Below, one piece after another: positions 4,783 to 24,353 of a stretch of 64,000 nucleotides of DNA (within the stretch, counting starts at the first letter, position 1; every line of letters begins with the position of its first letter). Both the position numbers and the translations under genes were made by a program. Under the pieces are notes generated by a model. The model was not told where the DNA came from. It saw only the letters and a program-made list of their open reading frames with translations, and made no database searches. Location: the NCBI RefSeq assembly GCF_002854065.1, contig NZ_CP024147.1; one strand, 5' to 3'. The stretch comes from Escherichia coli. GTDB taxonomy: Bacteria > Pseudomonadota > Gammaproteobacteria > Enterobacterales > Enterobacteriaceae.

Positions 4783-4866
4783 TATTCGGGATTGCCGGAT
4801 GCGACGCTGGCCGCGTCTTATCCGGCCTCCATAAGAGTAGCCCGATACGCTTGCGCATCGGGCGCT
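4783..4866. repeat. REP/BIME-type extragenic palindromic elements
   Basis: GCCGGATGCGACGC...CTTATCCGGCC and GCCCGATACGCTTGCGCATCGGGC palindromic units between the convergent dbpA and ttcA. Confidence 0.7.
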
Positions 4867-4873
4867 ATCCTGG

Positions 4874-5809
4874 TTATTTCACTTCAACCACATTCAGCCG
4901 TAACTCATCCAACTGATTTTCATCTTCTTCTGGCTGCCAGCCCGCCGGTTGTAGTGGGATCTCTTCGCGATCAAACGCCAGATCACCCCCGTTAACCACT
5001 TCAGAACCGTGGGTGATGCCTTTGAAATCGAACAGGTTGGTATCGCACAGATGCGACGGCACCACATTCTGCATCGCGCTGAACATCGTCTCGATACGCC
5101 CTGGATAACGTTTATCCCAGTCACGCAACATGTCAGCAATCACCTGACGTTGCAGGTTAGGCTGTGAACCGCACAGGTTGCACGGAATAATGGGGAACGC
5201 TTTTGCATCGGCAAATCGCTGAATATCTTTCTCGCGGCAGTAGGCCAGCGGACGAATAACGATATGTTTGCCATCATCGCTCATCAGTTTCGGAGGCATA
5301 CCTTTCATCTTGCCGCCGTAGAACATATTTAAGAACAGCGTCTGCAGGATATCGTCACGATGGTGACCCAGCGCGATCTTCGTCGCCCCCAGTTCCGTTG
5401 CGGTACGATAAAGAATACCGCGACGAAGGCGAGAACACAGTGAGCAAGTGGTTTTGCCCTCTGGAATCTTCTCTTTCACGATACCGTAAGTGTTCTCTTC
5501 AACAATCTTGTACTCAACGCCCAGCTTTTCAAGATACTCGGGCAGAACGTGCTCCGGGAAGCCCGGTTGCTTTTGATCGAGGTTAACAGCCACCAGCGAA
5601 AAATTGATTGGCGCGCTTTGCTGCAAATTGCGCAGAATCTCCAGCATGGTATAGCTGTCTTTACCCCCGGAGAGGCAAACCATGATGCGATCGCCTTCTT
5701 CAATCATATTGAAGTCAGCAATGGCTTCGCCCACGTTACGACGCAGGCGTTTTTGTAATTTGTTCAGGTTGTATTGTTCTTTCTTGCTAATTTCTTGATT
5801 TTGCGACAT
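4874..5809 (-). CDS. ttcA: tRNA 2-thiocytidine(32) synthetase TtcA
   Basis: 311-aa ORF with PP-loop SGGKDS and Cys-X-X-Cys motifs. Confidence 0.92.
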
Positions 5810-11855: not shown

Positions 11856-12122
11856 ATGCGAGCAGCGTTTTGGGTAGGGTGTGCCGCTTTATTGTTGTCG
11901 GCGTGTAGTAGTGAGCCTGTTCAGCAGGCGACTGCGGCGCACGTAGCGCCAGGTTTAAAAGCGTCGATGTCCAGTAGTGGAGAAGCAAATTGTGCAATGA
12001 TCGGCGGTTCGCTTTCTGTTGCCCGTCAACTGGATGGTACGGCGATTGGGATGTGTGCATTACCCAACGGCAAACGCTGTAGCGAACAGTCACTTGCCGC
12101 CGGGAGCTGTGGCAGCTATTAA
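11856..12122 (+). CDS. ydbJ: Small lipoprotein YdbJ (DUF333)
   Basis: 88-aa ORF with lipobox LLSAC. Confidence 0.8.
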   Translation: MRAAFWVGCAALLLSACSSEPVQQATAAHVAPGLKASMSSSGEANCAMIGGSLSVARQLDGTAIGMCALPNGKRCSEQSLAAGSCGSY

Positions 12123-12541
12123 TTCATTAAATCCGCCAGCTTATAAGTTAATGTCTGTTTCGCGGTCGCCAGCGTTAACTGGTTCGCGGTCAGATCCACT
12201 TGTGCACCTTCTTTCAGCATTTCGCTAATGGTGTTATCGAGTTCATTAAGCTGCGGGTTAGCGCACATCATACGGGTCATTGCCAGCCCTTTGGCTGTCA
12301 GTTCACCATTAGACAGTTTGCCTTCACCGCTAAAGCGGTTACACATGCTGCCGGAAATCATCATTTTTTCACCAAAGCTGATTTCTGGCGGATTTTTATC
12401 GCTGGTCACGGGCTTACCGTTTACGCTTTCCAGCACAAAGCGATGATGCTGTAGCTGTTCTGGCGTAACAGCAATTTTGTCATTACTTACACATCCCGCC
12501 ATCAGCAGGCTTAGCGCAACAAACGCGGCTACTTTCTTCAT
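12119..12541 (-). CDS. hslJ: Heat-shock lipoprotein HslJ
   Basis: 140 aa from MKKVAAFVALSLLMAGC (lipobox). The ORF-track start at 12553 is a 4-codon extension. Confidence 0.88.
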   Translation of the reverse strand: MKKVAAFVALSLLMAGCVSNDKIAVTPEQLQHHRFVLESVNGKPVTSDKNPPEISFGEKMMISGSMCNRFSGEGKLSNGELTAKGLAMTRMMCANPQLNELDNTISEMLKEGAQVDLTANQLTLATAKQTLTYKLADLMN

Positions 12542-12651
12542 TGTGGTTCTCAATTACAGTTTCTGACTCAGGACTATTTTAAGAATAGAGAATGAAAGGT
12601 CATTGGGGATTATCTGAATCAGCTCCCCTGGATTGCAGGGGAGCGGCAAGA

Positions 12652-13641
12652 TTAAACCAGTTCGTTCGGGCAGGTTTCACCTTTTTCCAGATTGCTTAAG
12701 TTTTGCAGCGTAGTCTGAGAAATACTGGTCAGAGCTTCTGCTGTCAGGAATGCCTGGTGCCCGGTAAACAGCACGTTGTGGCAGGCGGACAGGCGACGGA
12801 ATACGTCATCCTGGATCACGTCGTTGGATTTATCTTCAAAGAACAGATCGCGTTCGTTCTCATACACGTCCATACCCAACGAACCAATTTTCTGATTTTT
12901 CAGCGCTTCAATTGCTGCCTGAGAATCAATCAATGCACCGCGACTGGTATTGACGATCATCACGCCATTTTTCATCTGATCGAAGGCGGCTTCGTTCAAC
13001 AGATGGTAGTTTTCCGGTGTCAGCGGGCAGTGCAGAGAGATAACGTCTGATTCAGAGAACAGGGTTGGCAGATCGACATACTCCACACCGAGTTCCAGCG
13101 CCGCTGCACTTGGATACGGATCGAACGCCAGCAGACGCATACCAAAACCTTTCAGAATGCGCAGCATCGCCACACCGATTTTACCGGTACCGATAACGCC
13201 TGCCGTTTTGCCATACATAGTAAAGCCAGTCAGACCTTCTAGAGAGAAGTTGGCGTCACGGGTACGCTGATACGCGCGGTGAATACGGCGGTTCAGCGTC
13301 ATCATCATACCGATGGCGTGTTCAGCAACGGCCTCTGGATCATAGGCTGGAACACGGACTACTTTCAGCCCCAGTTCTTTTGCCGCGTCAAGGTCGACGT
13401 TATTGAAACCGGCACAGCGCAGGGCGATATATTTAACGCCGTGCTTTTTCAGCTCTTCCAGCACCGGGCGGCTGCCGTCATCGTTTACGAAAATACATAC
13501 TGCTTCGCAGCCATTGGCAGTTTTAGCGGTTTTTTCCGTCAGCAGAAAGTCAAAAAATTCCAGCTCAAAGCCAAAGGACTCGTTCACCTGTTGCAGGTAC
13601 TTCTTGTCGTACTGTTTTGTGCTATAAACGGCGAGTTTCAT
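12652..13641 (-). CDS. ldhA: Fermentative D-lactate dehydrogenase (NAD-dependent)
   Basis: 329-aa ORF with D-isomer 2-hydroxyacid dehydrogenase NAD-binding motif GVIGTGKIG. Confidence 0.95.
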   Translation of the reverse strand: MKLAVYSTKQYDKKYLQQVNESFGFELEFFDFLLTEKTAKTANGCEAVCIFVNDDGSRPVLEELKKHGVKYIALRCAGFNNVDLDAAKELGLKVVRVPAYDPEAVAEHAIGMMMTLNRRIHRAYQRTRDANFSLEGLTGFTMYGKTAGVIGTGKIGVAMLRILKGFGMRLLAFDPYPSAAALELGVEYVDLPTLFSESDVISLHCPLTPENYHLLNEAAFDQMKNGVMIVNTSRGALIDSQAAIEALKNQKIGSLGMDVYENERDLFFEDKSNDVIQDDVFRRLSACHNVLFTGHQAFLTAEALTSISQTTLQNLSNLEKGETCPNELV

Positions 13642-13848
13642 AAGACTTTCTCCAGTGATGTTGAATCACATTTAAGCTACTAAAAATATTTTACAAAATT
13701 TCAAATTTAATTGAAAGCTATGGCGATATTGAAAAATTCATCAACAACTATGCTTAGTGTAGGCGCAACCTTCAACTGAACGGTTAAACATGCCACAATA
13801 CCCGTATTGAATGCTTAATTTTTCGCTAAATCAGGATATTAACTACCC

Positions 13849-16488
13849 ATGCTGGGTAAATATAAAGCCGTTCTCGCGCTGTTATTACTGATTATTCTTG
13901 TGCCGTTGACGCTGCTGATGACGCTCGGGCTGTGGGTTCCCACGCTGGCGGGCATCTGGCTACCGCTCGGGACACGTATTGCATTAGATGAAAGCCCACG
14001 CATTACGCGTAAAGGTTTAATCATTCCCGATCTCCGTTATCTGGTGGGAGATTGTCAGCTTGCGCATATCACCAACGCCAGCCTTTCACATCCCAGCCGC
14101 TGGTTATTGAACGTCGGCACGGTAGAACTTGATTCTGCTTGTCTGGCGAAATTGCCGCAGACGGAGCAATCGCCAGCTGCTCCAAAAACCCTCGCGCAAT
14201 GGCAGTCCATGCTGCCTAACACCTGGATCAATATTGATAAACTGATTTTTTCTCCCTGGCAGGAATGGCAGGGAAAACTCTCTCTCGCATTAACCTCCGA
14301 TATCCAGCAACTGCGTTATCAGGGCGAAAAAGTTAAATTTCAAGGCCAGCTGAAAGGGCAACAACTTACAGTCAGCGAACTGGATGTCGTCGCGTTTGAA
14401 AATCAGCCGCCGGTTAAACTGGTGGGGGAATTTACTATGCCGCTAGTGCCGGATGGACTTCCTGTAAGTGGTCATGCTACTGCGACGTTAAACTTGCCGC
14501 AGGAACCGTCACTGGTAGATGCCGAGCTGGACTGGCAGGAAAATAGCGGGCAATTGATTGTGCTGGCACGGGATAACGGCGATCCGTTGCTCGATTTGCC
14601 GTGGCAAATTACGCGTCAACAATTGACCGTAAGCGATGGTCGCTGGAGCTGGCCGTATGCAGATTTTCCTTTGAGTGGCCGACTGGGTGTCAAAGTCGAC
14701 AACTGGCAGGCAGGGCTTGAGAACGCTCTGGTCAGCGGACGACTGAGTGTGCTGACCCAGGGGCAAGCGGGTAAGGGCAACGCGGTGCTTAATTTTGGCC
14801 CAGGAAAATTAAGCATGGATAACAGCCAGCTGCCTCTGCAGCTGACCGGTGAAGCGAAACAGGCGGACCTCATTTTATATGCCCGTTTACCTGCGCAGGT
14901 AAGTGGAAGTCTGTCTGACCCAACGCTGACCTTTGAGCCAGGCGCGTTACTTCGTTCAAAGGGAAGAGTCATCGATTCGCTGGACATCGATGAAATCCGC
15001 TGGCCTTTAGCGGGTGTAAAAGTCACCCAACGTGGTGTTGACGGACGTTTGCAGGCCATTTTGCAGGCGCATGAAAATGAACTGGGCGATTTCGTGCTGC
15101 ATATGGATGGGCTGGCGAATGATTTTCTCCCTGACGCTGGCCGCTGGCAGTGGCGCTACTGGGGAAAAGGGAGTTTTACACCGATGAATGCCACCTGGGA
15201 TGTCGCAGGAAAAGGTGAGTGGCATGACAGCACGATTACGCTGACCGATCTCTCCACCGGTTTCGACCAGTTACAATACGGTACGATGACGGTAGAAAAG
15301 CCGCGATTAATTCTCGACAAGCCCGTCGTCTGGGTACGTGACGCACAGCATCCCTCCTTCAGCGGCACGCTGTCACTGGACGCCGGGCAAACGCTGTTCA
15401 CTGGCGGCAGTGTGTTACCGCCATCAACCTTAAAATTTAGCGTCGATGGGCGCGATCCGACGTATTTCCTCTTTAAAGGCGATTTACATGCTGGTGAGAT
15501 TGGCCCGGTTCGGGTAAATGGTCGCTGGGACGGTATTCGTCTGCGCGGTAATGCCTGGTGGCCTAAACAATCACTGACTGTATTCCAGCCGCTGGTGCCA
15601 CCCGACTGGAAGATGAACTTACGCGATGGTGAACTGTATGCTCAGGTTGCATTTTCTGCTGCGCCTGAACAAGGATTCCGCGCGGGAGGGCACGGCGTGT
15701 TGAAAGGCGGTAGTGCCTGGATGCCAGATAATCAGGTTAACGGTGTCGATTTTGTCCTGCCTTTCCGTTTTGCCGATGGAGCCTGGCATCTGGGGACTCG
15801 CGGCCCCGTTACGTTGCGAATTGCCGAAGTGATTAATCTGGTGACAGCGAAAAATATTACGGCTGATTTGCAAGGGCGTTATCCGTGGACTGAAGAAGAA
15901 CCATTGCTGTTGACTGATGTTAGCGTCGATGTGTTAGGCGGTAACGTGCTGATGAAACAATTACGTATGCCGCAACATGACCCGGCGCTGTTGCGGCTGA
16001 ATAATCTCTCATCCAGCGAACTGGTTAGCGCCGTCAATCCGAAACAATTTGCCATGTCCGGGGCATTTAGTGGTGCATTGCCGTTATGGCTGAACAATGA
16101 AAAATGGATTGTCAAAGAGGGCTGGTTGGCAAACGCGGGGCCGATGACGCTGCGTCTGGATAAAGACACTGCAGATGCGGTGGCCAAAGACAATATGACC
16201 GCTGGAACTGCCATCAACTGGTTGCGTTATATGGAAATCAGTCGCTCATCAACAAGGATTAATTTAGATAATCTCGGTGTGTTAACCATGCAGGCCAACA
16301 TTTCGGGCACCAGTCGCGTCGATGGTAAAAGCGGTACGGTAAACCTTAATTATCACCATGAAGAGAATATTTTTACGTTATGGCGCAGTTTACGCTTTGG
16401 CGATAATCTCCAGGTATGGCTGGAGCAGAATGCCCAGCTACCGGAAACTGGCTGCCCATCAGGAAAAGAGTGTGAGGAAAAACAATGA
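13849..16488 (+). CDS. ydbH: AsmA-like inner-membrane protein YdbH (TamB/YhdP paralogue)
   Basis: 879-aa ORF with N-terminal TM anchor and a long beta-rich periplasmic region. Confidence 0.88.
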   Translation: MLGKYKAVLALLLLIILVPLTLLMTLGLWVPTLAGIWLPLGTRIALDESPRITRKGLIIPDLRYLVGDCQLAHITNASLSHPSRWLLNVGTVELDSACLAKLPQTEQSPAAPKTLAQWQSMLPNTWINIDKLIFSPWQEWQGKLSLALTSDIQQLRYQGEKVKFQGQLKGQQLTVSELDVVAFENQPPVKLVGEFTMPLVPDGLPVSGHATATLNLPQEPSLVDAELDWQENSGQLIVLARDNGDPLLDLPWQITRQQLTVSDGRWSWPYADFPLSGRLGVKVDNWQAGLENALVSGRLSVLTQGQAGKGNAVLNFGPGKLSMDNSQLPLQLTGEAKQADLILYARLPAQVSGSLSDPTLTFEPGALLRSKGRVIDSLDIDEIRWPLAGVKVTQRGVDGRLQAILQAHENELGDFVLHMDGLANDFLPDAGRWQWRYWGKGSFTPMNATWDVAGKGEWHDSTITLTDLSTGFDQLQYGTMTVEKPRLILDKPVVWVRDAQHPSFSGTLSLDAGQTLFTGGSVLPPSTLKFSVDGRDPTYFLFKGDLHAGEIGPVRVNGRWDGIRLRGNAWWPKQSLTVFQPLVPPDWKMNLRDGELYAQVAFSAAPEQGFRAGGHGVLKGGSAWMPDNQVNGVDFVLPFRFADGAWHLGTRGPVTLRIAEVINLVTAKNITADLQGRYPWTEEEPLLLTDVSVDVLGGNVLMKQLRMPQHDPALLRLNNLSSSELVSAVNPKQFAMSGAFSGALPLWLNNEKWIVKEGWLANAGPMTLRLDKDTADAVAKDNMTAGTAINWLRYMEISRSSTRINLDNLGVLTMQANISGTSRVDGKSGTVNLNYHHEENIFTLWRSLRFGDNLQVWLEQNAQLPETGCPSGKECEEKQ

Positions 16489-16670
16489 AAATAGTGATAG
16501 CCGCGTTTGCGTCCTCTTTTATGTTGGTTGGTTGCACGCCTCGCATTGAAGTGGCTGCGCCGAAAGAGCCAATCACCATTAATATGAACGTTAAAATTGA
16601 GCATGAAATCATCATTAAAGCGGATAAGGACGTTGAAGACCTGCTCAAAACCCGTAGCGATCTATTTTGA
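16485..16670 (+). CDS. ynbE: Lipoprotein YnbE
   Basis: 61-aa ORF with lipobox MLVGC; 4-bp overlap (ATGA) with the ydbH stop. Confidence 0.85.
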   Translation: MKIVIAAFASSFMLVGCTPRIEVAAPKEPITINMNVKIEHEIIIKADKDVEDLLKTRSDLF

Positions 16671-16674
16671 GGTG

Positions 16675-17001
16675 ATGATGAAAAGAACATTACTCATAGC
16701 TGTATGGGCCATTGGCCTGATGAGCGACAGTGCAATGGCTTTAACCCTGAACGAAGCCAGAAGTCAGGGGCGGGTAGGTGAAACGCTTAACGGTTACCTG
16801 GTGGCGCTACAAACGGATGCCGAAACACAGGCATTAGTAAAAGATATTAATGAAGCTCGTAACCATAGTTATCAACAACTGGCAAAGCAAAATAATGTAT
16901 CCACTAAAGAGATAGCCAAACTGGCTGGACAAAAGCTTGTTGCTCGCGCGAAGTCGGGGCAATATGTTCAGGGAATTAATGGTAAATGGTTGCGCAAATA
17001 A
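16675..17001 (+). CDS. ydbL: Periplasmic protein YdbL (DUF1318)
   Basis: 108 aa from MMKRTLLIAVWAIGLMSDSAMA (signal peptide); start 5 bp after the ynbE stop. Confidence 0.82.
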   Translation: MMKRTLLIAVWAIGLMSDSAMALTLNEARSQGRVGETLNGYLVALQTDAETQALVKDINEARNHSYQQLAKQNNVSTKEIAKLAGQKLVARAKSGQYVQGINGKWLRK

Positions 17002-17408
17002 ATTATAGTTGGCTACAAAATGTATCTATTAATGATCTTTTACAGTATTTAAACTGACGTTAGCATGCTTAATTACCGTGGGTATTTCTACAAAAACCTT
17101 ATATATCCTTCCCTTAAATAACAAATCATTACCAATATATATGTAATCACAAAATATATATGCAGCGTCAATGAATTATTAGTGTGTTTTTGTTTTTTGT
17201 CGTTAATTTTTAGATTGAAGTGAGTTTTTTGTGGAATATAATTCCATCAACTGTTTTTTTGTATGCTTTTACTTGCCTGATTTTAATATTGATTTTGTGA
17301 ATTATATAAGCATTTCTTTATTGCTTATTTCACTATGAATATTTACTACGATTTATCTTCAAATTCTGCATGGCTTGTTACGCACGGTCTAGATCTAAGG
17401 AATTTTAT

Positions 17409-20400
17409 ATGCAAAGGAAAAAATTATTGTCTGTTTGTGTTGCCATGGCGTTAAGTAGCCAGACATGGGCTGCGGATACTTCAATACCCGACTCAACCGA
17501 AAAAACACGTAAGTCCAGTAAGATAACATGTCCGGCAAATATTCATTCCCTGAGCAAAGAGCAGCTAGAAAATTTATCCGCGGAGTGCAGAGAAAATAAA
17601 GATAGTGCAGTTTTACCATGGGCAGCTGCAGGTCTTGCTGCAGTAGCTACGGGAATTGCTATATATACCTTAAGTGACGATGACAATCACCACCATAATA
17701 ACTCCCCAGTTCCGGATGATGGCGGTGATACGCCAGTTCCGCCAGACGACGGCGGTGATACGCCGGTTCCGCCAGATGACGGCGGTGATACGCCGGTTCC
17801 GCCAGATGACGGCGGTGATACGCCAGTTCCGCCAGATGACGGCGGTGATACGCCAGTTCCGCCAGATGACGGCGATGATACGCCGGTTCCGCCAGATGAC
17901 GGCGGTGATACGCCAGTTCCGCCAGATGACGGCGGTGATACGCCAGTTCCGCCAGATGACGGCGGTGATACGCCGGTTCCACCAGATGATGGCGGTGATA
18001 CGCCAGTTCCAGACGACGGCGGTGATACGCCTGTTCCGCCAGACGATGGTGGCGATACCCCGGTTAAACACGATCCTGTCGTCTATAAAAATGACGTAAC
18101 CTGGGATCAGGACGCGAAAACCGTCAAAATTCGCGAAACCACCTTTACCTACAGCCAAAATGCCGATGGGAGTTACACCTTAACCGCGCCTGATGGCCTG
18201 ACGACGATAGTCAAGGGCTGGACAGTCCATGACGACAGCAACACCGTCATCTTTGATGGCGTAAATACGGCAGGTGGCATCACCTGGAGCTACGACGATG
18301 ATGGGCTCATCCATATCACTAAAGAGGCCGGTGTCGTTGTTGATGGCACAACCGGAACTGCGATTGATTTTGGTAATGCGATCATCACCGATCAGGGCGG
18401 CAATACGGCGCTGAATGGCGGTACTGTCATGACGGTTGAGGGTGACAACATCACCCTCAACAACGACGGTAAAACGACCGCCATCGGCGAGGGTTCGGTC
18501 GTTGGTATCCTTACTGGTGACGATATCACTATCAATAACAACGGCGAGACGGAAGTTGACGGCGGTACCGCAGTAATCATCAATGGCGATAATGCTACGC
18601 TGAACACTGCGGGCGACTCGACCATCACCAATGGTGGTACGGGTAGCCTTATCAATGGCGATAATGCGCGGGTCGATAATCAAGGTACCATGAGCGTTGA
18701 CGGTGAGAATTCCACTGGCTCGAAAATTGTCGGTGACGGTGCCACCATCAAACAGGAAGGCGACTTATACGTAAGCGGTGGTGCGCACGGTATTGACGTT
18801 GACGGCAATGATACGTTCGTTAGCAACAAAGGTAATATTACGGTCATCGAAGATAACTCTATTGGCATGCTGCTTGATGGTGATGGCGTCAGCGTGATCA
18901 ACATGGGCGACCTCAATGTTGGTCAGGCCGCAGCGGGTGAAAATGCCATTGGCATTCAGATCGACGGTGATAATGCGACATTTGTTAACGTTGGTGATAT
19001 TTCCGCGACCAATGCCGGAACCGGTGTCAGCGTTGCTGGGGATAAAGCTAATATTTCACTCGCGGGTGGGTTAGACGTTGGGGATTTCTCCACCGGTCTT
19101 GATGTCTCTGGCAATAATAACAACATGACGCTGGCGACTTATGAGCTGAATGTGACAGGGCAAAAAGCGACGGGTGTTAATGTTTCGGGTGATGGCAATA
19201 CGATTGAAATCGCAGGCAGCATTCTGGTTGATAAAGATCAGAAAGCCGATAATGCGCAACCTTACTTCTTTAATCCCTCAACCGGCGTAAATATCAGCGG
19301 TAATAACAATGACGTCACGCTGGATGGTCAGTTAACCGTTGTTGCTGATAGCGAAACCACTACGCGTTCCTATGCAAGTTACGACGGTGCTCAGGAGCAC
19401 ATTGCGGGTATTGTTATTGCTGGCGATGACAATACCTTCACGCTTAATGGCGGTGTCCATTTTGTCGGTGAAAAAAATGTCATGGATGATGGCTCAAAAC
19501 CTGCCGCATCTCGTCGTGGTATCGGAGATACACCGCTTATGAGCGTTGATGGGCATTCCTCAGTCTACCTCAATGGTGAGTCAACCATCAGCGGTGAGTT
19601 CCCGCTGGGTTTCGAAAATCTCATTCAACTGAGTAATGGCGCGGAGCTGGAGATTGGCGCTGACGCAACGTTTGATATGAGTGATGTGGATTCTTTCACT
19701 TATTATTATCGTGTAGCGTTATCCACTATTAGTATTGATTATGGTGCGAAGGCGACAAACAACGGTGAAGTGGAACTGAAAAATATCGGTTTTGCGGCTG
19801 CCTGGAATAAAGATTCAACGGTAATCAATAACGGATCCATTGGCCTGGCGATGTACGATTTTGGTACCGACCCGGCACCAAAAGTCTTTGACGTTGAATA
19901 CGGTGGGATTGGCGTTAACAATGGTACCATGACCACCAAAATGATGAATCAGCACAGTGTGCTGAATTATCCGGCAGAGTGGAACTTGTCTGATGGTACC
20001 TCTTTCAATAACAAGGCATTAGGGCTGACAGGTATGCTTGCCAGCTACTCGTCATCCATTCTGAACGGCGAAACGGGCATTATTGATATGTATGGCCGTG
20101 GCAGTGTAGGGATGCTAGCCATCGATAAATCAACCGCGGATAACGAAGGGCAAATCACCCTGGATACGCTGTGGGTTGATGAAAATGATGAAACATCGCT
20201 GCGTAATAATGTTGCAAATAGCACGGCGAAAGATTTCGGTGTGGGAATGGCTTCAGGTACCGATGCCTATAATGGGGCATTAACTAAAGCCACGGCAACC
20301 AACCACGAGAATGGTGTGATTACTGTCTACAACGCCGGTGCGGGGATGGCGGCGTATGGGAATACTAATACGGTCATTAACCAGGGAACCATCAACCTGG

Positions 20401-23273
20401 AGAAAAATGAAAATTACAACGATTCTCTCGGTGTGAATAAACTCGTCGGCATGGCGGTTTATCACGAAGGCACCGCCATTAATGACCAGACAGGCGTAAT
20501 CAACATTAACGCGGAAAATGGTCAGGCATTCTATAACGATGGCACTGGGCTTATTATCAACTATGGCACAATTTGTACCTTTGGCGTTTGCCAGGGGGCC
20601 GATGAATATAATCCAACGGATAATTATATTGCCGATTTATATGATCATGGCGATGTATTAAGTTCTGCGGGTGAGACCGTATTATTATCGTCAGGTGCGA
20701 TTATCAACGGGGATGTCACCAGTGCGGGTGCTGTTAAAAATGGAACGATCAGGATACTCGAAAATGGTGCGCTGGTTAACGAGTCGAGCGGAACCATTAG
20801 CTCAGCCATCGTCGTGAATGAAGGCGGTGCGTTAACCAATGAAGGTGTATTGAACACGGTGACTCTGGAAGGAGGAACCTTCAATAACAACGGAACGCTT
20901 AATGACGTCGTAAAAATTGAGAAAAACAGCAACGCGGTAATTAATAACACCGGTTCCCTGTCAACTTTACAACTTCACGATGGTACGGTGAATAACAGCG
21001 GTATTGCGTCGGCGCGCGTTAACGCTCAGGGCGATGCGGTATTCAATAACCTTGCAGGCGGCGAGGCGCGTAAAGGCGCGATTCTCTATAACTCTGCGGT
21101 AGTGAATAACGCGGGTACCTGGAAAATGGGTTATCAGGATGAAAACAACAATGCCGGGACGCTGGATATTGACGATAAGTCAACGTTCAACAACAGCGGC
21201 AAACTCATCCTTGATAACAGCAAAAACGCCATTCGCTTCCAGGGCAGCAATGCTAACGCCACGTTATATAACACCGGTGAAATGACGCTGGATGCCGCAT
21301 TAGGTGCGGGCGCTATTCACTACGACGATGGCGCCAGCCAGTTTATTAACAAGGGCGTGGTGGATGCGAAAGTCACCGTGGCGGTAAGTACTGCCGGTGC
21401 GACAGAAAGCGATGCCTTCTTGTGGAACCAGGATGGCGGGGTAATTAACTTCGATAAAGACAACGCCAGCGCGGTTAAATTCACCCACAACAACTATGTT
21501 GCTCTCAACGATGGTGTAATGAACATCAGCGGCAACAACGCCGTGGCGATGGAAGGCGATAAAAACGCACAGCTGGTTAACAACGGTGTTATCAATCTCG
21601 GTACCGAAGGCACCACCGATACCGGATTGACTGGTATGCAACTGGATGCCAATGCCACCGCCGATGCGGTAATTGAGAACAACGGCACGATCAATATTTT
21701 TGCTAACGACTCGTTTGCGTTCAGCGTACTGGGCACAGAAGGTCATATCGTTAACAACGGTACGGTGGTGATTGCCGACGGCGTGACTGGTTCGGGGTTG
21801 ATTAAGCAGGGCGACAGCGTGAATGTGGAAGGGGTGAACGGCAACAGCGGTAACAATACCGAAGTGCATTACACCGACTACACGTTGCCGGACATGCCAA
21901 GCTCTTACACCACTTCACCTTTCAGTGAAACGACTGATAGCGGTAGTAGCGATGGCAGCAGTAACAATCTTAACGGCTATATCGTCGGTACCAACGTTGA
22001 TGGCAGCGCCGGTAAACTGAAGGTCAACAACGCCAGCATGAATGGTGTCGGGATCAACACCGGTTTCGCCGCCGGTACGGCAGACACCACGGTCAGTTTC
22101 GACAACGTGGTGGAAGGCATCAACCTGACCGACGCCGATGCCATCACCTCAACGTCCGTGGTATGGACCGCCAAAGGCAGCACCGATGCCAGCGGCAACG
22201 TTGACGTCATCATGAGCAAAAACGCCTACACCGATGTGGCGACCGATGCTTCGGTGAACGATGTGGCGAAGGTACTGGATGCGGGTTACACCAATAACGA
22301 GCTGTATACCAGCCTGAACGTGGGCACCACTGCTGAACTGAATAGCGCCCTGAAGCAGGTGAGCGGTAGCCAGGCGACCACGGTATTCCGTGAAGCGCGT
22401 GTGTTAAGCAACCGCTTCAGCATGCTGGCGGATGCCGCGCCGAAGGTGGGTAACGGTCTGGCGTTCAACGTTGTTGCGAAAGGCGATCCACGTGCCGAGT
22501 TAGGTAATAATACCGAATACGACATGCTGGCATTGCGTAAAACCATCGACCTGAGCGAAAGCCAGACGATGAGTCTGGAGTACGGTATCGCTCGTCTCGA
22601 TGGTGATGGTGCGCAGAAAGCGGGTGGTAATGGCGTCACAGGTGGTTATAGCCAGTTCTTTGGCCTGAAACATCAGATGTCCTTCGACAACGGCATGAAC
22701 TGGAATAACGCATTGCGTTATGACGTTCACAACCTTGACAGTAGCCGTTCGATTGCATTTAGCAACACAAACAAAACGGCTGATACCGACGTGAAGCAGC
22801 AGTACCTGGAGTTCCGCAGCGAAGGGGCGAAGACTTTCGAACCGAGCGAAGGACTGAAGGTTACGCCATATGCGGGTGTAAAACTGCGTCACTCGCTGGA
22901 AGGCGGCTATCAGGAGCGCAATGCCGGAGACTTTAACCTGAGCATGAACAGCGGCAGCGAAACGGCGGTGGACAGCATCGTCGGGCTGAAACTGGACTAC
23001 GCAGGGAAAGGCGGCTGGAGCGCGAATGCGACGCTGGAAGGCGGGCCGAACCTGAGCTACAGCAAGAGCCAGCGCACGGCAAGCCTTGCAGGGGCAGGCA
23101 GCCAGCACTTTAACGTCGATGACGGTCAGAAGGGCGGCGGTATCAACAGCCTGGCGAGCGTCGGCGTGAAGTACAGTAGCAAAGAAAGTTCGCTGAATCT
23201 GGATGCGTATCACTGGAAAGAGGACGGCATCAGCGACAAAGGCGTGATGCTGAACTTTAAGAAAACGTTCTAA
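17409..23273 (+). CDS. ydbA: Autotransporter (type Va) adhesin-like protein YdbA, apparently intact
   Basis: About 1954 aa: signal peptide MQRKKLLSVCVAMALSSQTWA, PPDDGGDTPV tandem repeats, long Gly/Asn/Thr-rich beta-helix passenger, C-terminal beta-barrel ending ...MLNFKKTF. Confidence 0.85.
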   Translation: MQRKKLLSVCVAMALSSQTWAADTSIPDSTEKTRKSSKITCPANIHSLSKEQLENLSAECRENKDSAVLPWAAAGLAAVATGIAIYTLSDDDNHHHNNSPVPDDGGDTPVPPDDGGDTPVPPDDGGDTPVPPDDGGDTPVPPDDGGDTPVPPDDGDDTPVPPDDGGDTPVPPDDGGDTPVPPDDGGDTPVPPDDGGDTPVPDDGGDTPVPPDDGGDTPVKHDPVVYKNDVTWDQDAKTVKIRETTFTYSQNADGSYTLTAPDGLTTIVKGWTVHDDSNTVIFDGVNTAGGITWSYDDDGLIHITKEAGVVVDGTTGTAIDFGNAIITDQGGNTALNGGTVMTVEGDNITLNNDGKTTAIGEGSVVGILTGDDITINNNGETEVDGGTAVIINGDNATLNTAGDSTITNGGTGSLINGDNARVDNQGTMSVDGENSTGSKIVGDGATIKQEGDLYVSGGAHGIDVDGNDTFVSNKGNITVIEDNSIGMLLDGDGVSVINMGDLNVGQAAAGENAIGIQIDGDNATFVNVGDISATNAGTGVSVAGDKANISLAGGLDVGDFSTGLDVSGNNNNMTLATYELNVTGQKATGVNVSGDGNTIEIAGSILVDKDQKADNAQPYFFNPSTGVNISGNNNDVTLDGQLTVVADSETTTRSYASYDGAQEHIAGIVIAGDDNTFTLNGGVHFVGEKNVMDDGSKPAASRRGIGDTPLMSVDGHSSVYLNGESTISGEFPLGFENLIQLSNGAELEIGADATFDMSDVDSFTYYYRVALSTISIDYGAKATNNGEVELKNIGFAAAWNKDSTVINNGSIGLAMYDFGTDPAPKVFDVEYGGIGVNNGTMTTKMMNQHSVLNYPAEWNLSDGTSFNNKALGLTGMLASYSSSILNGETGIIDMYGRGSVGMLAIDKSTADNEGQITLDTLWVDENDETSLRNNVANSTAKDFGVGMASGTDAYNGALTKATATNHENGVITVYNAGAGMAAYGNTNTVINQGTINLEKNENYNDSLGVNKLVGMAVYHEGTAINDQTGVININAENGQAFYNDGTGLIINYGTICTFGVCQGADEYNPTDNYIADLYDHGDVLSSAGETVLLSSGAIINGDVTSAGAVKNGTIRILENGALVNESSGTISSAIVVNEGGALTNEGVLNTVTLEGGTFNNNGTLNDVVKIEKNSNAVINNTGSLSTLQLHDGTVNNSGIASARVNAQGDAVFNNLAGGEARKGAILYNSAVVNNAGTWKMGYQDENNNAGTLDIDDKSTFNNSGKLILDNSKNAIRFQGSNANATLYNTGEMTLDAALGAGAIHYDDGASQFINKGVVDAKVTVAVSTAGATESDAFLWNQDGGVINFDKDNASAVKFTHNNYVALNDGVMNISGNNAVAMEGDKNAQLVNNGVINLGTEGTTDTGLTGMQLDANATADAVIENNGTINIFANDSFAFSVLGTEGHIVNNGTVVIADGVTGSGLIKQGDSVNVEGVNGNSGNNTEVHYTDYTLPDMPSSYTTSPFSETTDSGSSDGSSNNLNGYIVGTNVDGSAGKLKVNNASMNGVGINTGFAAGTADTTVSFDNVVEGINLTDADAITSTSVVWTAKGSTDASGNVDVIMSKNAYTDVATDASVNDVAKVLDAGYTNNELYTSLNVGTTAELNSALKQVSGSQATTVFREARVLSNRFSMLADAAPKVGNGLAFNVVAKGDPRAELGNNTEYDMLALRKTIDLSESQTMSLEYGIARLDGDGAQKAGGNGVTGGYSQFFGLKHQMSFDNGMNWNNALRYDVHNLDSSRSIAFSNTNKTADTDVKQQYLEFRSEGAKTFEPSEGLKVTPYAGVKLRHSLEGGYQERNAGDFNLSMNSGSETAVDSIVGLKLDYAGKGGWSANATLEGGPNLSYSKSQRTASLAGAGSQHFNVDDGQKGGGINSLASVGVKYSSKESSLNLDAYHWKEDGISDKGVMLNFKKTF
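17706..18064 (+). repeat. About 12 tandem copies of a 30-bp repeat (one 27-bp unit) encoding PPDDGGDTPV within ydbA
   Basis: Near-identical head-to-tail units GATGACGGCGGTGATACGCCAGTTCCGCCA with occasional wobble changes; one unit encodes GDDTPV. The mirror-image ORFs in the track here are repeat artefacts. Confidence 0.9.
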
Positions 23274-23294
23274 TTTTTAGCATGTGATACACAA

Positions 23295-23326
23295 ACCGCA
23301 ACGCTGATACAGGTTGCGGTTTTTTA
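23295..23326 (+). terminator. Rho-independent terminator downstream of ydbA
   Basis: ACCGCAAC...GTTGCGGT hairpin followed by TTTTT; a partial REP-like GCCGGATGCGACGC follows. Confidence 0.8.
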
Positions 23327-23492
23327 TTGCCGGATGCGACGCTTGACTTATCTTTTGCTGTCTAATGTTTTGGTGTCTTTCAGGACAATAGTGCTACTCA
23401 TCCAGAAATCTTGTTTACGCCTTCGCATTATTTATCTCTTTTCGTTTCTATACTGATTTTTCTTAATCCGTTTTATTACAGGGCAGGGTGCG

Positions 23493-24353
23493 ATGAGCAG
23501 CAATACATTTACTCTCGGTACAAAATCCGTTAACCGTCTTGGTTATGGCGCGATGCAACTGGCAGGTCCTGGGGTTTTTGGCCCCCCAAGAGATCGCCAC
23601 GTCGCTATAACTGTGCTGCGCGAGGCGCTGGCATTGGGCGTCAATCACATTGATACCAGCGACTTTTATGGTCCGCACGTCACCAATCAGATTATCCGCG
23701 AAGCGCTTTATCCTTACTCTGACGACCTGACAATTGTCACTAAAATTGGTGCGCGGCGTGGAGAGGACGCTTCCTGGTTGCCCGCCTTTTCTCCGGCAGA
23801 GCTGCAAAAAGCGGTACACGATAATCTACGTAATCTCGGCCTGGACGTACTGGATGTGGTTAACCTGCGCGTGATGATGGGGGATGGTCATGGCCCGGCG
23901 GAAGGATCGATTGAAGCCAGCCTGACCGTGCTGGCAGAGATGCAACAACAAGGCCTGGTAAAACATATTGGCCTAAGCAACGTCACACCGACGCAGGTTG
24001 CAGAGGCGCGCAAGATTGCCGAAATCGTCTGTGTGCAGAACGAATACAACATTGCTCATCGTGCTGATGACGCAATGATTGAAGCTTTGGCTCGTGACGG
24101 CATTGCCTACGTGCCGTTCTTTCCGCTCGGGGGCTTTACGCCGCTGCAATCTTCCACGCTTTCCGATGTTGCTGCGAGCTTGGGTGCAACACCAATGCAG
24201 GTGGCGCTGGCGTGGCTGTTACAACGTTCACCGAATATTTTGCTGATCCCAGGGACGTCTTCTGTTGCGCATTTACGGGAGAATATGGCTGCTGAAAAAT
24301 TGCATCTTTCTGAGGAAGTGTTGTCTACGTTGGATGGTATTTCGCGAGAATAA
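23493..24353 (+). CDS. pdxI: Aldo-keto reductase, pyridoxine 4-dehydrogenase PdxI (YdbC)
   Basis: 286-aa ORF with AKR-family motifs (IDTSDFYG, GLSNV). Confidence 0.88.
   Translation: MSSNTFTLGTKSVNRLGYGAMQLAGPGVFGPPRDRHVAITVLREALALGVNHIDTSDFYGPHVTNQIIREALYPYSDDLTIVTKIGARRGEDASWLPAFSPAELQKAVHDNLRNLGLDVLDVVNLRVMMGDGHGPAEGSIEASLTVLAEMQQQGLVKHIGLSNVTPTQVAEARKIAEIVCVQNEYNIAHRADDAMIEALARDGIAYVPFFPLGGFTPLQSSTLSDVAASLGATPMQVALAWLLQRSPNILLIPGTSSVAHLRENMAAEKLHLSEEVLSTLDGISRE

Follow-up and report, generated by a model that had tools for sequence, protein, structure and literature searches.

The analyzed stretch of Escherichia coli DNA (64,000 nucleotides, hereafter the window) very probably contains the intact ydbH-ynbE-ydbL operon of this species, which is under purifying selection and acts by the published mechanism, the inferred parts of that mechanism included. 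The gene layout, the translational coupling and the protein partnership proposed in an earlier note are real and were published previously, and nothing in them is new. Thus, the interpretation is right but not novel, because every element of it matches published experiments, and the finding is an ordinary one. If anything here is new, it is a divergent allele of the 3' part of the operon. [quoted passage not shown] The genes and their upstream region are the following.

13642..13848, plus strand: ldhA-ydbH intergenic region, 207 nt, 100% identity with K-12
13849..16488, plus strand: ydbH, 879 aa, AsmA-like protein anchored in the inner membrane, with a beta-groove that repeats
16485..16670, plus strand: ynbE, 61 aa, outer-membrane lipoprotein (PF13617)
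16678..17001, plus strand: ydbL, 107 aa, periplasmic chaperone-like modulator of YnbE, with an alternative in-frame ATG at 16675

All three reading frames are intact, lie on the plus strand and contain no frameshift or premature stop. Their coordinates, together with the profile matches, bear out the earlier description of a large AsmA-like gene followed by two small envelope-protein genes. YdbH matches PF11739 over residues 14-863 and profile positions 1-893 (E=5e-292, 972 bits, cut-off 26.3) and the NCBIfam equivalog NF007971 (1399.6 bits, cut-off 824); no solved structure is detectable for it by sequence. By inspection of the translation, the hydrophobic stretch AVLALLLLIILVPLTLLMTLGLWV (residues 7-30) is its putative N-terminal transmembrane anchor. 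YnbE matches PF13617 (E=1.7e-16, 60.1 bits, cut-off 25.8), and its lipobox L14-V15-G16-C17, encoded at 16524-16535 and followed by Thr at position +2, can be read from the translation. YdbL matches PF07027/DUF1318 (E=1.1e-30, 106.4 bits, cut-off 27), its residues 22-107 match PDB entry 28oj_A, a solved structure titled "Probable chaperone-like protein YdbL" (E=1.2e-38), and the end of its signal peptide, AMA followed by LTL, is readable in the translation.

The segment 13600-17400 is identical (100%) to that of strain 100416 and has matches in 5417 of 5426 complete genomes. In K-12, the same three genes (b1381-b1383) occur in the same order between ldhA and a variable paa/ydbA region. Over its first ~750 codons, ydbH shares ~98.7% of its nucleotides with K-12, and the whole YdbH protein has 97.8% amino-acid identity to its K-12 counterpart. 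The downstream flank differs: the window has an intact ydbA autotransporter gene, whereas K-12 has feaR and the paa genes.

The arrangement of the three genes is not a chance layout, because their order and strand are retained in all 80 related Enterobacterales loci, where YdbH identity falls to as low as 46%, and the overlap of ydbH with ynbE is found in 76 of 79. As in the window, ynbE lies directly between ydbH upstream and ydbL downstream in 80/80 loci. Among more distant homologs (33-35% identity), an ynbE-like gene is found immediately upstream of ydbL in three of three cases, and in one of them a YdbH-like C-terminus overlaps ynbE. This conserved architecture, along with the junction signals described below, provides independent comparative support for the published model. 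The flanks of the operon were compared in the same 80 loci. Downstream of ydbL, convergent feaR is observed in 26 loci from several genera, ydbA in two and neither gene in 52; on these counts, neither feaR nor ydbA could be accepted as the clearly ancestral flank. Upstream, divergent ldhA precedes ydbH in the window (minus strand) and in most of the 80 loci.

The promoter and the 5' untranslated region of the operon presumably lie within the ldhA-ydbH intergenic region. A simple consensus scan detected no sigma-70 site in this spacer, and the matches in the region as a whole (5 vs. 6.3 expected) are at the level of chance. The same holds for the consensus scans for promoters and terminators generally, in which the ldhA-ydbH and ydbL-ydbA spacers were empty save for one promoter-like site at 17215-17242. 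No Rfam family was found in positions 12000-24000.

The function of the operon has been established in K-12, the allele used in all published experiments. [quoted passage not shown] Hence both checks proposed in the earlier note, synthetic lethality and physical interaction, are already published for K-12. Its association of YhdP, TamB and YdbH with phospholipid transport agrees with the redundancy genetics, the conduction itself being putative. YnbE is the obligate outer-membrane partner of YdbH and multimerizes on the YdbH C-terminus; its beta-strand I30-I44 has a role in strand augmentation and multimerization, and W791 and W857 of YdbH are the sites of cross-linking to YnbE (PMC11126948). 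In the window, YnbE residues 10-51, including this strand, are identical to K-12, E52D and E55K are the only differences in the mature protein, and both tryptophans are retained despite 13 substitutions across YdbH residues 751-879.

In the published mechanism, YdbH, anchored in the inner membrane, extends its hydrophobic beta-groove across the periplasm, and the lipoprotein YnbE adds beta-strands to the YdbH C-terminus, completing a bridge from the inner to the outer membrane. This bridge putatively conducts phospholipids, redundantly with YhdP and TamB. Soluble periplasmic YdbL binds the C-terminal helix of YnbE and restrains runaway YnbE multimerization. We infer that the divergent allele in the window acts in the same way as the K-12 allele.

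Alternatively, YdbL would not be a transient chaperone but would belong to the finished YdbH-YnbE bridge as a structural subunit of fixed stoichiometry. Models with 1:1:1 composition from AlphaFold-Multimer and MultiFold2 place YdbL on the YdbH C-terminus alongside YnbE, native mass spectrometry demonstrates a 1:1 complex of YdbL with the C-terminal helix peptide of YnbE, and the W104A and K107A substitutions at the predicted YdbH-YdbL interface impair function (PMC11126948; bioRxiv 10.64898/2026.03.16.712125); moreover, ynbE and ydbL are neighbors in every locus examined. However, a strain without tamB, yhdP and the ydbH operon needs ydbH plus ynbE, and nothing more of the operon, in order to grow, the YdbH-YnbE cross-links remain without YdbL, and surplus YdbL is inhibitory and lowers YnbE multimerization, so we consider a subunit role unlikely. 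YdbL as a chaperone-like modulator is consistent with its solved structure and DegP sensitivity (bioRxiv 10.64898/2026.03.16.712125) and with the effects of its dosage on lethality, the YdbL:YnbE ratio being critical (PMC11126948). The earlier suggestion that YnbE and YdbL are stoichiometric partners thus holds in part: the ratio matters and binding is 1:1, but YdbL is dispensable and chaperone-like, a role as a bridge subunit being hypothetical.

Two other AsmA-like systems of the E. coli envelope are natural points of comparison. TamB, like YdbH, is a beta-groove protein anchored in the inner membrane and spans the envelope only together with a partner in the outer membrane, and TamB-TamA is redundant with YdbH for growth. 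The partners are different, TamA being an Omp85 beta-barrel and YnbE a multimerizing lipoprotein of 61 aa; TamB is much longer than YdbH, and no YdbL-like periplasmic modulator has been described for TamB-TamA. The paralog YhdP, redundant with both YdbH and TamB, is reportedly long enough to span the periplasm alone, unlike YdbH (bioRxiv 10.64898/2026.03.16.712125). Also unlike YdbH, it has no operon-encoded lipoprotein or chaperone partner described in the cited literature.

The three genes meet at two junctions of different structure, which contain the following signals.

16474..16477, plus strand: GAGG, the Shine-Dalgarno (SD) motif of ynbE, located within the coding sequence of ydbH and 7 nt ahead of the ynbE ATG
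16485..16488, plus strand: ATGA, the ynbE start over the ydbH stop, read from the sequence
16668..16672, plus strand: TGAGG, the ynbE stop inside the ydbL SD, read from the sequence

At the first junction, the ATGA overlap of ydbH and ynbE noted earlier is present. The window shares this overlap, the GAGG motif and the TGAGGTGATGATG junction with K-12 letter for letter. Coupling of this pair, also claimed earlier, has been measured in K-12: Huber et al. (2019) reported "strong translational coupling" of ydbH and ynbE via termination-reinitiation, for which the intragenic SD is "strictly essential" (PMC6728339). Ribosomes that end ydbH at ATGA would thus reinitiate on ynbE via the GAGG within ydbH, as demonstrated for the K-12 allele. 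The ydbH/ynbE pair is itself one of the five tested by Huber et al., and the hyfHI, astDB and menDH pairs similarly have an overlapping stop and start with an SD in the upstream gene (PMC6728339). In the 76 of 79 related loci mentioned above, the overlap between the ydbH stop and the first ynbE start amounts to 4 nt in 54 loci, 1 nt in 13 and 19-20 nt in nine; the other three have a gap of 2-9 nt. An SD-like motif precedes this start by no more than 16 nt in 77/79 loci.

The K-12 reporter fragment of Huber et al. spans -99 to +30, and local RNA structures were predicted at this junction (PMC6728339). In our folding of the same fragment, the energies are no better than those of shuffled sequences for either allele (z = 0.01 and 0.62). 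Identity to K-12 within the fragment is limited to 16461-16492, a 32-nt run shared by the two alleles. It could not be retained as a special conserved island, since other parts of the alleles share runs just as long (34 and 32 nt) and the probability of a run of at least 32 nt is 0.20 by shuffling. As this run is unexceptional, the argument from conservation rests on the 80-genome comparison.

The second junction, ynbE/ydbL, differs from the pairs of Huber et al. in that the genes do not overlap, the gap is 7 nt and the stop codon lies inside the SD. The start region of ydbL is ATGATG, with in-frame ATGs at 16675 and 16678. The earlier placement of the ydbL start 5 bp past ynbE corresponds to the first of these, which does exist in frame; the evidence favors the second, with its 7-nt gap, because it is annotated so, conserved so and better spaced. 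The 16678 start is used in the K-12 reference annotation and in the RefSeq annotation of the identical strain, its spacer from the SD is 5 nt (vs. 2 nt for 16675), and TGAGG-N5-ATG is found at the junction in 61/80 loci, TGAGG itself in 75/80 and the extra upstream ATG in just 29/80.

From this conserved geometry we infer translational coupling of ynbE and ydbL as well, which Kumar et al. raised as a possibility (PMC11126948). Since ydbL starts 7 nt beyond ynbE, behind an SD that holds the ynbE stop, its translation would follow that of ynbE, and such linkage would hold the YdbL:YnbE ratio inside the narrow range needed experimentally. Alternatively, ydbL could be translated independently, with the 30S subunit binding the SD GAGGTGAT (16669-16676) de novo and the short gap reflecting compact packing rather than coupling. 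This SD pairs with the anti-SD over a long stretch, the 5 nt that separate GAGG from the ATG at 16678 are a favorable spacing, its sequestration by a conserved RNA structure was not found, and bioBF, one of the five overlapping E. coli pairs of Huber et al., is uncoupled despite its overlap (PMC6728339); the wording of Kumar et al., limited to a possibility, leaves room for this reading too. On the other hand, the stop inside the SD in 75/80 loci and the 7-nt spacing in 61/80 exceed the needs of an independent ribosome-binding site, and the critical YdbL:YnbE ratio established genetically (PMC11126948) favors linked translation. We regard independent translation as plausible, but not as the probable explanation.

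A hairpin sequestering the ydbL SD was considered as a coupling device and rejected. In the minimum-energy fold of both E. coli alleles, the ynbE codons for Ile42-44 pair with the ydbL SD and start, AUCAUCAUY (16609-16617) pairing with GGUGAUGAU (16671-16679). Across 62 distinct sequences, 67.4% of cells pair vs. 66.7% in shuffles, 52-53 of the 62 do not form the central pairs, covariation is no greater than in shuffles, and RNAalifold found no consensus structure for this hairpin. The stem is a by-product of the Ile-Ile-Ile codons of Escherichia and ATGATG.

The 3' part of the operon differs strongly from that of K-12 and was considered as a separate feature.

16100..17001, plus strand: divergent 3' module allele, comprising approximately YdbH residues 751-879, ynbE and ydbL; its left end is placed approximately

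At about 16100, identity to K-12 drops from 98-100% to 81.8% (16100-16998), and dS relative to K-12 climbs from 0.044 to 0.64-2.7, with dN/dS of 0.01-0.16. Within this module of ~900 bp, 18% of nucleotides differ from K-12, as do 13 residues of YdbH, 6 of YnbE and 29 of YdbL. YdbL has 73% amino-acid identity to its K-12 counterpart and 107 residues instead of 108, with A59E and E60A among its other changes; it ends in WLRK and lacks Phe108 of K-12, a part of the DegP-recognition patch proposed for that protein (bioRxiv 10.64898/2026.03.16.712125). The absence of Phe108 leaves YdbL family membership unaffected: this residue is not a family feature, because just 2 of 82 sequences end in Phe, while 67 end in Lys.

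Such divergence, together with the absence of Phe108 and the charge reversal E55K in YnbE, could indicate a decaying or functionally altered copy that is not equivalent to the K-12 operon. This reading is highly improbable given the intact reading frames, the low dN/dS and the retention of every experimentally important residue. In YdbL, R28, E35, Y40, N58, R61, L68, N72, I79, K86, L87, R90, W104 and K107, which are needed in K-12 for function or YnbE binding (bioRxiv 10.64898/2026.03.16.712125), are all kept, and most of the 13 are invariant across the 82 sequences. Substitutions in K-12 at the changed positions E51, E60 and D77 are tolerated (bioRxiv 10.64898/2026.03.16.712125). Furthermore, successful lineages, O157:H7 among them, have this allele fixed, and the consensus of the 82 sequences has the states of the window (YnbE K55, YdbL A60 and C-terminal Lys), K-12 being the outlier.

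Another scenario is that the two E. coli alleles of the YdbH C-terminus/YnbE/YdbL module are functionally distinct or co-adapted sets, which we find quite doubtful. As the window type lacks YdbL Phe108 and has YnbE K55 and YdbL A60, its YdbL turnover through DegP, or its affinity between YnbE and YdbL, might not be the same as in the atypical K-12 type. In that case, conclusions from K-12 would transfer incompletely to O157:H7 and other Enterobacterales, and operons mixing the two alleles might function less well. Co-variation of YnbE E55K with YdbL positions 52, 55, 59, 60, 62, 63 and 76-78 was considered and rejected, no signal being seen; YnbE E55 occurs in one of the 82 sequences, and a K-12-type YdbL (locus L007) is paired with YnbE K55. 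The K-12 allele, on which all the experiments were done, is atypical at a few positions of the YnbE-YdbL region. Among complete E. coli genomes, 346 (~7%) are at least 99% identical to the window type and 5025 are at 80-90%; the allele of this minority is consensus-like, and its synonymous divergence from K-12 is that of a different genus.

The DNA can be assigned to E. coli, since segment 13600-17400 is 100% identical to E. coli strain 100416, whose RefSeq record names the identical three genes, and is matched by 5417 of the 5426 complete E. coli genomes. Coordinates read from the sequence place three ORFs on the plus strand at the positions proposed in the earlier note, and in profile searches YdbH, YnbE, and YdbL all score far above curated cut-offs.

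ydbH-ynbE-ydbL operon: features
13849-16488, plus strand: ydbH, 879 aa; PF11739, E=5e-292; NF007971 equivalog, 1399.6 bits vs a cut-off of 824
16474-16477, plus strand: GAGG motif, 7 nt 5' of the ynbE start (sequence read)
16485-16488, plus strand: ATGA, the ynbE ATG over the ydbH TGA (sequence read)
16485-16670, plus strand: ynbE, 61 aa; PF13617, E=1.7e-16
16668-16670, plus strand: ynbE stop, followed by GGTG and then ATGATG
ending at 17001, plus strand: ydbL-containing ORF; PF07027 (DUF1318), E=1.1e-30

As seen in the translations, YdbH has a hydrophobic anchor at its N-terminus, YnbE has an LVGC lipobox with Cys17, and YdbL has a signal peptide (...AMA/LTL).

The interpretation of this operon is already known, being wholly pre-empted by publications of 2019-2026. 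The earlier reading of the genes agrees with published genetics, binding, and coupling (PMC8593681, PMC8912898, PMC11126948, PMC6728339), and the synthetic-lethality and physical-interaction experiments that it proposed are already in the literature. Loss of YhdP, TamB, and YdbH together is lethal (PMC8593681, PMC8912898). YnbE, a lipoprotein of the outer membrane, forms multimers and cross-links to W791 and W857 in the C-terminal part of YdbH; without TamB and YhdP, ydbH and ynbE are enough for growth, and an increase in YdbL over YdbH/YnbE is lethal (PMC11126948). De'Ath et al. (2026) solved the YdbL structure, mapped its functional residues, and described 1:1 binding of YdbL to the YnbE C-terminal helix and degradation of YdbL by DegP, which a YnbE peptide prevents (bioRxiv 10.64898/2026.03.16.712125). 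This structure, PDB 28oj, matches the window's YdbL with E=1.2e-38. The suggestion that YnbE and YdbL are stoichiometric partners thus holds for the 1:1 complex of YdbL with the YnbE helix and for the importance of dosage, but YdbL is at most a putative structural subunit. YdbL is a dispensable, dosage-sensitive modulator, and the YdbH-YnbE bridge is a putative direct lipid transporter.

The ATGA overlap of ydbH and ynbE at 16485-16488 is present as described. Together with an intragenic SD, it was held responsible for 'strong translational coupling' (PMC11126948), and measurement of ydbH/ynbE coupling found the SD to be strictly essential (Huber et al., 2019; PMC6728339). For ynbE and ydbL we infer translational coupling. 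The start of ydbL, placed 5 bp after ynbE in the earlier note, requires a shift of 3 nt: an ATG does exist at 16675, but the second in-frame ATG, 16678, is favoured by several lines of evidence. It is used by the K-12 reference and by the record of the identical strain 100416, it alone fits the way in which the 2026 YdbL study numbers residues, and its spacer from GAGG is 5 nt vs 2 nt for 16675. Cross-species conservation also supports the second ATG, as the junction form TGAGG-N5-ATG occurs in 61/80 related loci and the extra upstream ATG in only 29/80. The RefSeq ydbL start (window 16675-16680) varies among E. coli genomes, being either the first ATG (109 aa) or the second (108 or 107 aa). 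For both E. coli alleles, folding predicts a 9-bp stem that covers the SD and start of ydbL; as a sequestering element it was rejected, being neither conserved nor accompanied by covariation. The two alleles share an identical 32-nt island where ydbH meets ynbE, which did not reach significance in their comparison (P=0.20).

The 80 related loci, one genome per species of Enterobacterales, were gathered via alignment of YdbL relatives and include Escherichia, Citrobacter, Salmonella, Klebsiella, Enterobacter, Kosakonia, Erwinia, Pantoea, Rahnella, and Cedecea. Gene order and orientation are kept in all 80, with YdbH identity down to 46%. The ydbH 3' end is intact in 79 loci; of these, 54 have a 4-nt overlap between the ydbH stop and the first ynbE start, 13 have a 1-nt overlap, nine have one of 19-20 nt, and only three have a gap, of 2-9 nt. 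An SD-like motif lies at most 16 nt upstream of this start in 77/79 loci, and the ynbE stop codon lies within the SD (TGAGG) in 75/80. In Rahnella bruchi (L078, ~4842-5019) ynbE and ydbL are 176 nt apart vs 7 nt, and a 15-nt unit (CAGCATCAAAAGAAG) in ~8 tandem copies fills the spacer; this insert may be non-coding or may extend YdbL with repeats at its N-terminus. In Citrobacter koseri NCTC10786 (L028) ydbH appears broken: the best single ORF segment covers residues 222-552 only and stops 973 nt before ynbE, with ynbE and ydbL intact. Either a pseudogene or a frameshift in the assembly may account for this.

Three far more distant YdbL homologs (33-35% identity) have a PF13617 gene directly 5'; in one a YdbH-like C-terminus overlaps this gene, and in another an unrelated DUF2058 gene takes the place of ydbH. 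The ynbE-ydbL pair is therefore the tightest unit. The pair can occur without an adjacent ydbH, as in one distant lineage (metagenome contig L089, 1-916), where the ynbE-like and ydbL-like genes follow a DUF2058 gene. A few metagenome-derived gene calls of 155-173 aa (P0062, P0065, and P0072) carry both PF13617 and PF07027 and are apparent YnbE-YdbL fusions. Since ynbE and ydbL of the window are in different frames, a frameshift would be required to join them, and the calls may reflect errors of assembly.

By nucleotide comparison, the operon's final ~900 bp (16100-17001; YdbH residues ~751-879, ynbE, and ydbL) are a deeply divergent allele. From hslJ to ydbH codon ~750 identity with K-12 is 98-100%, and from ~16100 to the ydbL stop it is 81.8%. 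The dS vs K-12 is 0.044 for ydbH codons 1-750, 0.64 for codons 751-879, 2.7 for mature ynbE, and 0.86 for mature ydbL. The values for the module resemble the divergence between E. coli and Salmonella. Among complete E. coli genomes this 3' module is sharply dimorphic: 346, O157:H7 among them, have at least 99% identity to the window's module, 28 have 95-99%, 5025 have 80-90% (the K-12 type), and 15 have 60-80%. YdbL of other Escherichia species is nearer to the window type than to K-12 (91-92% vs 76-77% for E. ruysiae and a multispecies Escherichia cluster; 82-83% vs 74-78% for E. marmotae and E. albertii).

By every test available, the window's copy would be functional. All three ORFs are intact, YdbH retains W791 and W857, the YnbE beta-strand is exactly that of K-12, and dN/dS of the mature proteins vs K-12 is 0.01-0.16. 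All YdbL residues whose substitution in K-12 harmed function or binding are kept; the differing positions include E51, E60, and D77, where substitutions in K-12 YdbL are tolerated (bioRxiv 10.64898/2026.03.16.712125).

At the allele-distinguishing positions, the consensus of 82 Enterobacterales sequences is the window's state, and K-12 is the outlier. The positions are YnbE residue 55 (window Lys, 80/82; K-12 Glu, 1/82), YdbL residue 60 (Ala, 71/82; Glu, 3/82), and the YdbL C-terminal residue (Lys, 67/82; Phe108, 2/82). Phe108 lies within a hydrophobic C-terminal patch proposed for DegP recognition (bioRxiv 10.64898/2026.03.16.712125). In the same 82 sequences no signal of YnbE-YdbL co-adaptation was found. 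All published experiments on the operon used K-12; the allele dimorphism and the atypical reference allele are minor, testable leads.

In four genomes sampled, window-type modules adjoin a ydbA-type gene, and K-12-type modules adjoin feaR or its remnant. The neighbouring paa region is known as a hotspot of heterogeneity (PMC4951805). Thus, the divergent block is most simply explained as the recombination flank of the variable paa-adjoining region. Among the 80 related loci, neither the ydbA nor the feaR form is clearly ancestral.

Features downstream of ydbL
17002-17369: ydbL-ydbA spacer, 368 nt, AT-rich
17215-17242: promoter-like site in this spacer, TTGAAG-16-TATAAT, 10 of 12
17370-23273: ydbA-type autotransporter gene directly 3' of ydbL, intact, 1967 aa; BigA_N and BigA_beta domains
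17715-18065: tandem array inside ydbA, 11.8 copies of a 30-nt unit, 91% matches

Promoter and terminator consensus matches did not exceed chance level, and Rfam returned no family over 12000-24000. The consensus scan predicted no intrinsic terminator on the plus strand of the spacer, and in the window's haplotype transcription of the ydbH operon might read on into ydbA. K-12, in contrast, has an inverted repeat (AACTAATTGGCGTTGCA...TGCAACGCCAATTAGTT) ahead of convergent feaR, and feaR, feaB, tynA, and paa genes at the ydbA site. The K-12 ydbA is described as an interrupted pseudogene (PMC4951805), and in strain 100416, identical to the window up to 17400, ydbA is cut by IS1. The tandem array encodes PPDDGGDTPV repeats in a proline-rich N-terminal region, and this repeat region is probably length-variable.
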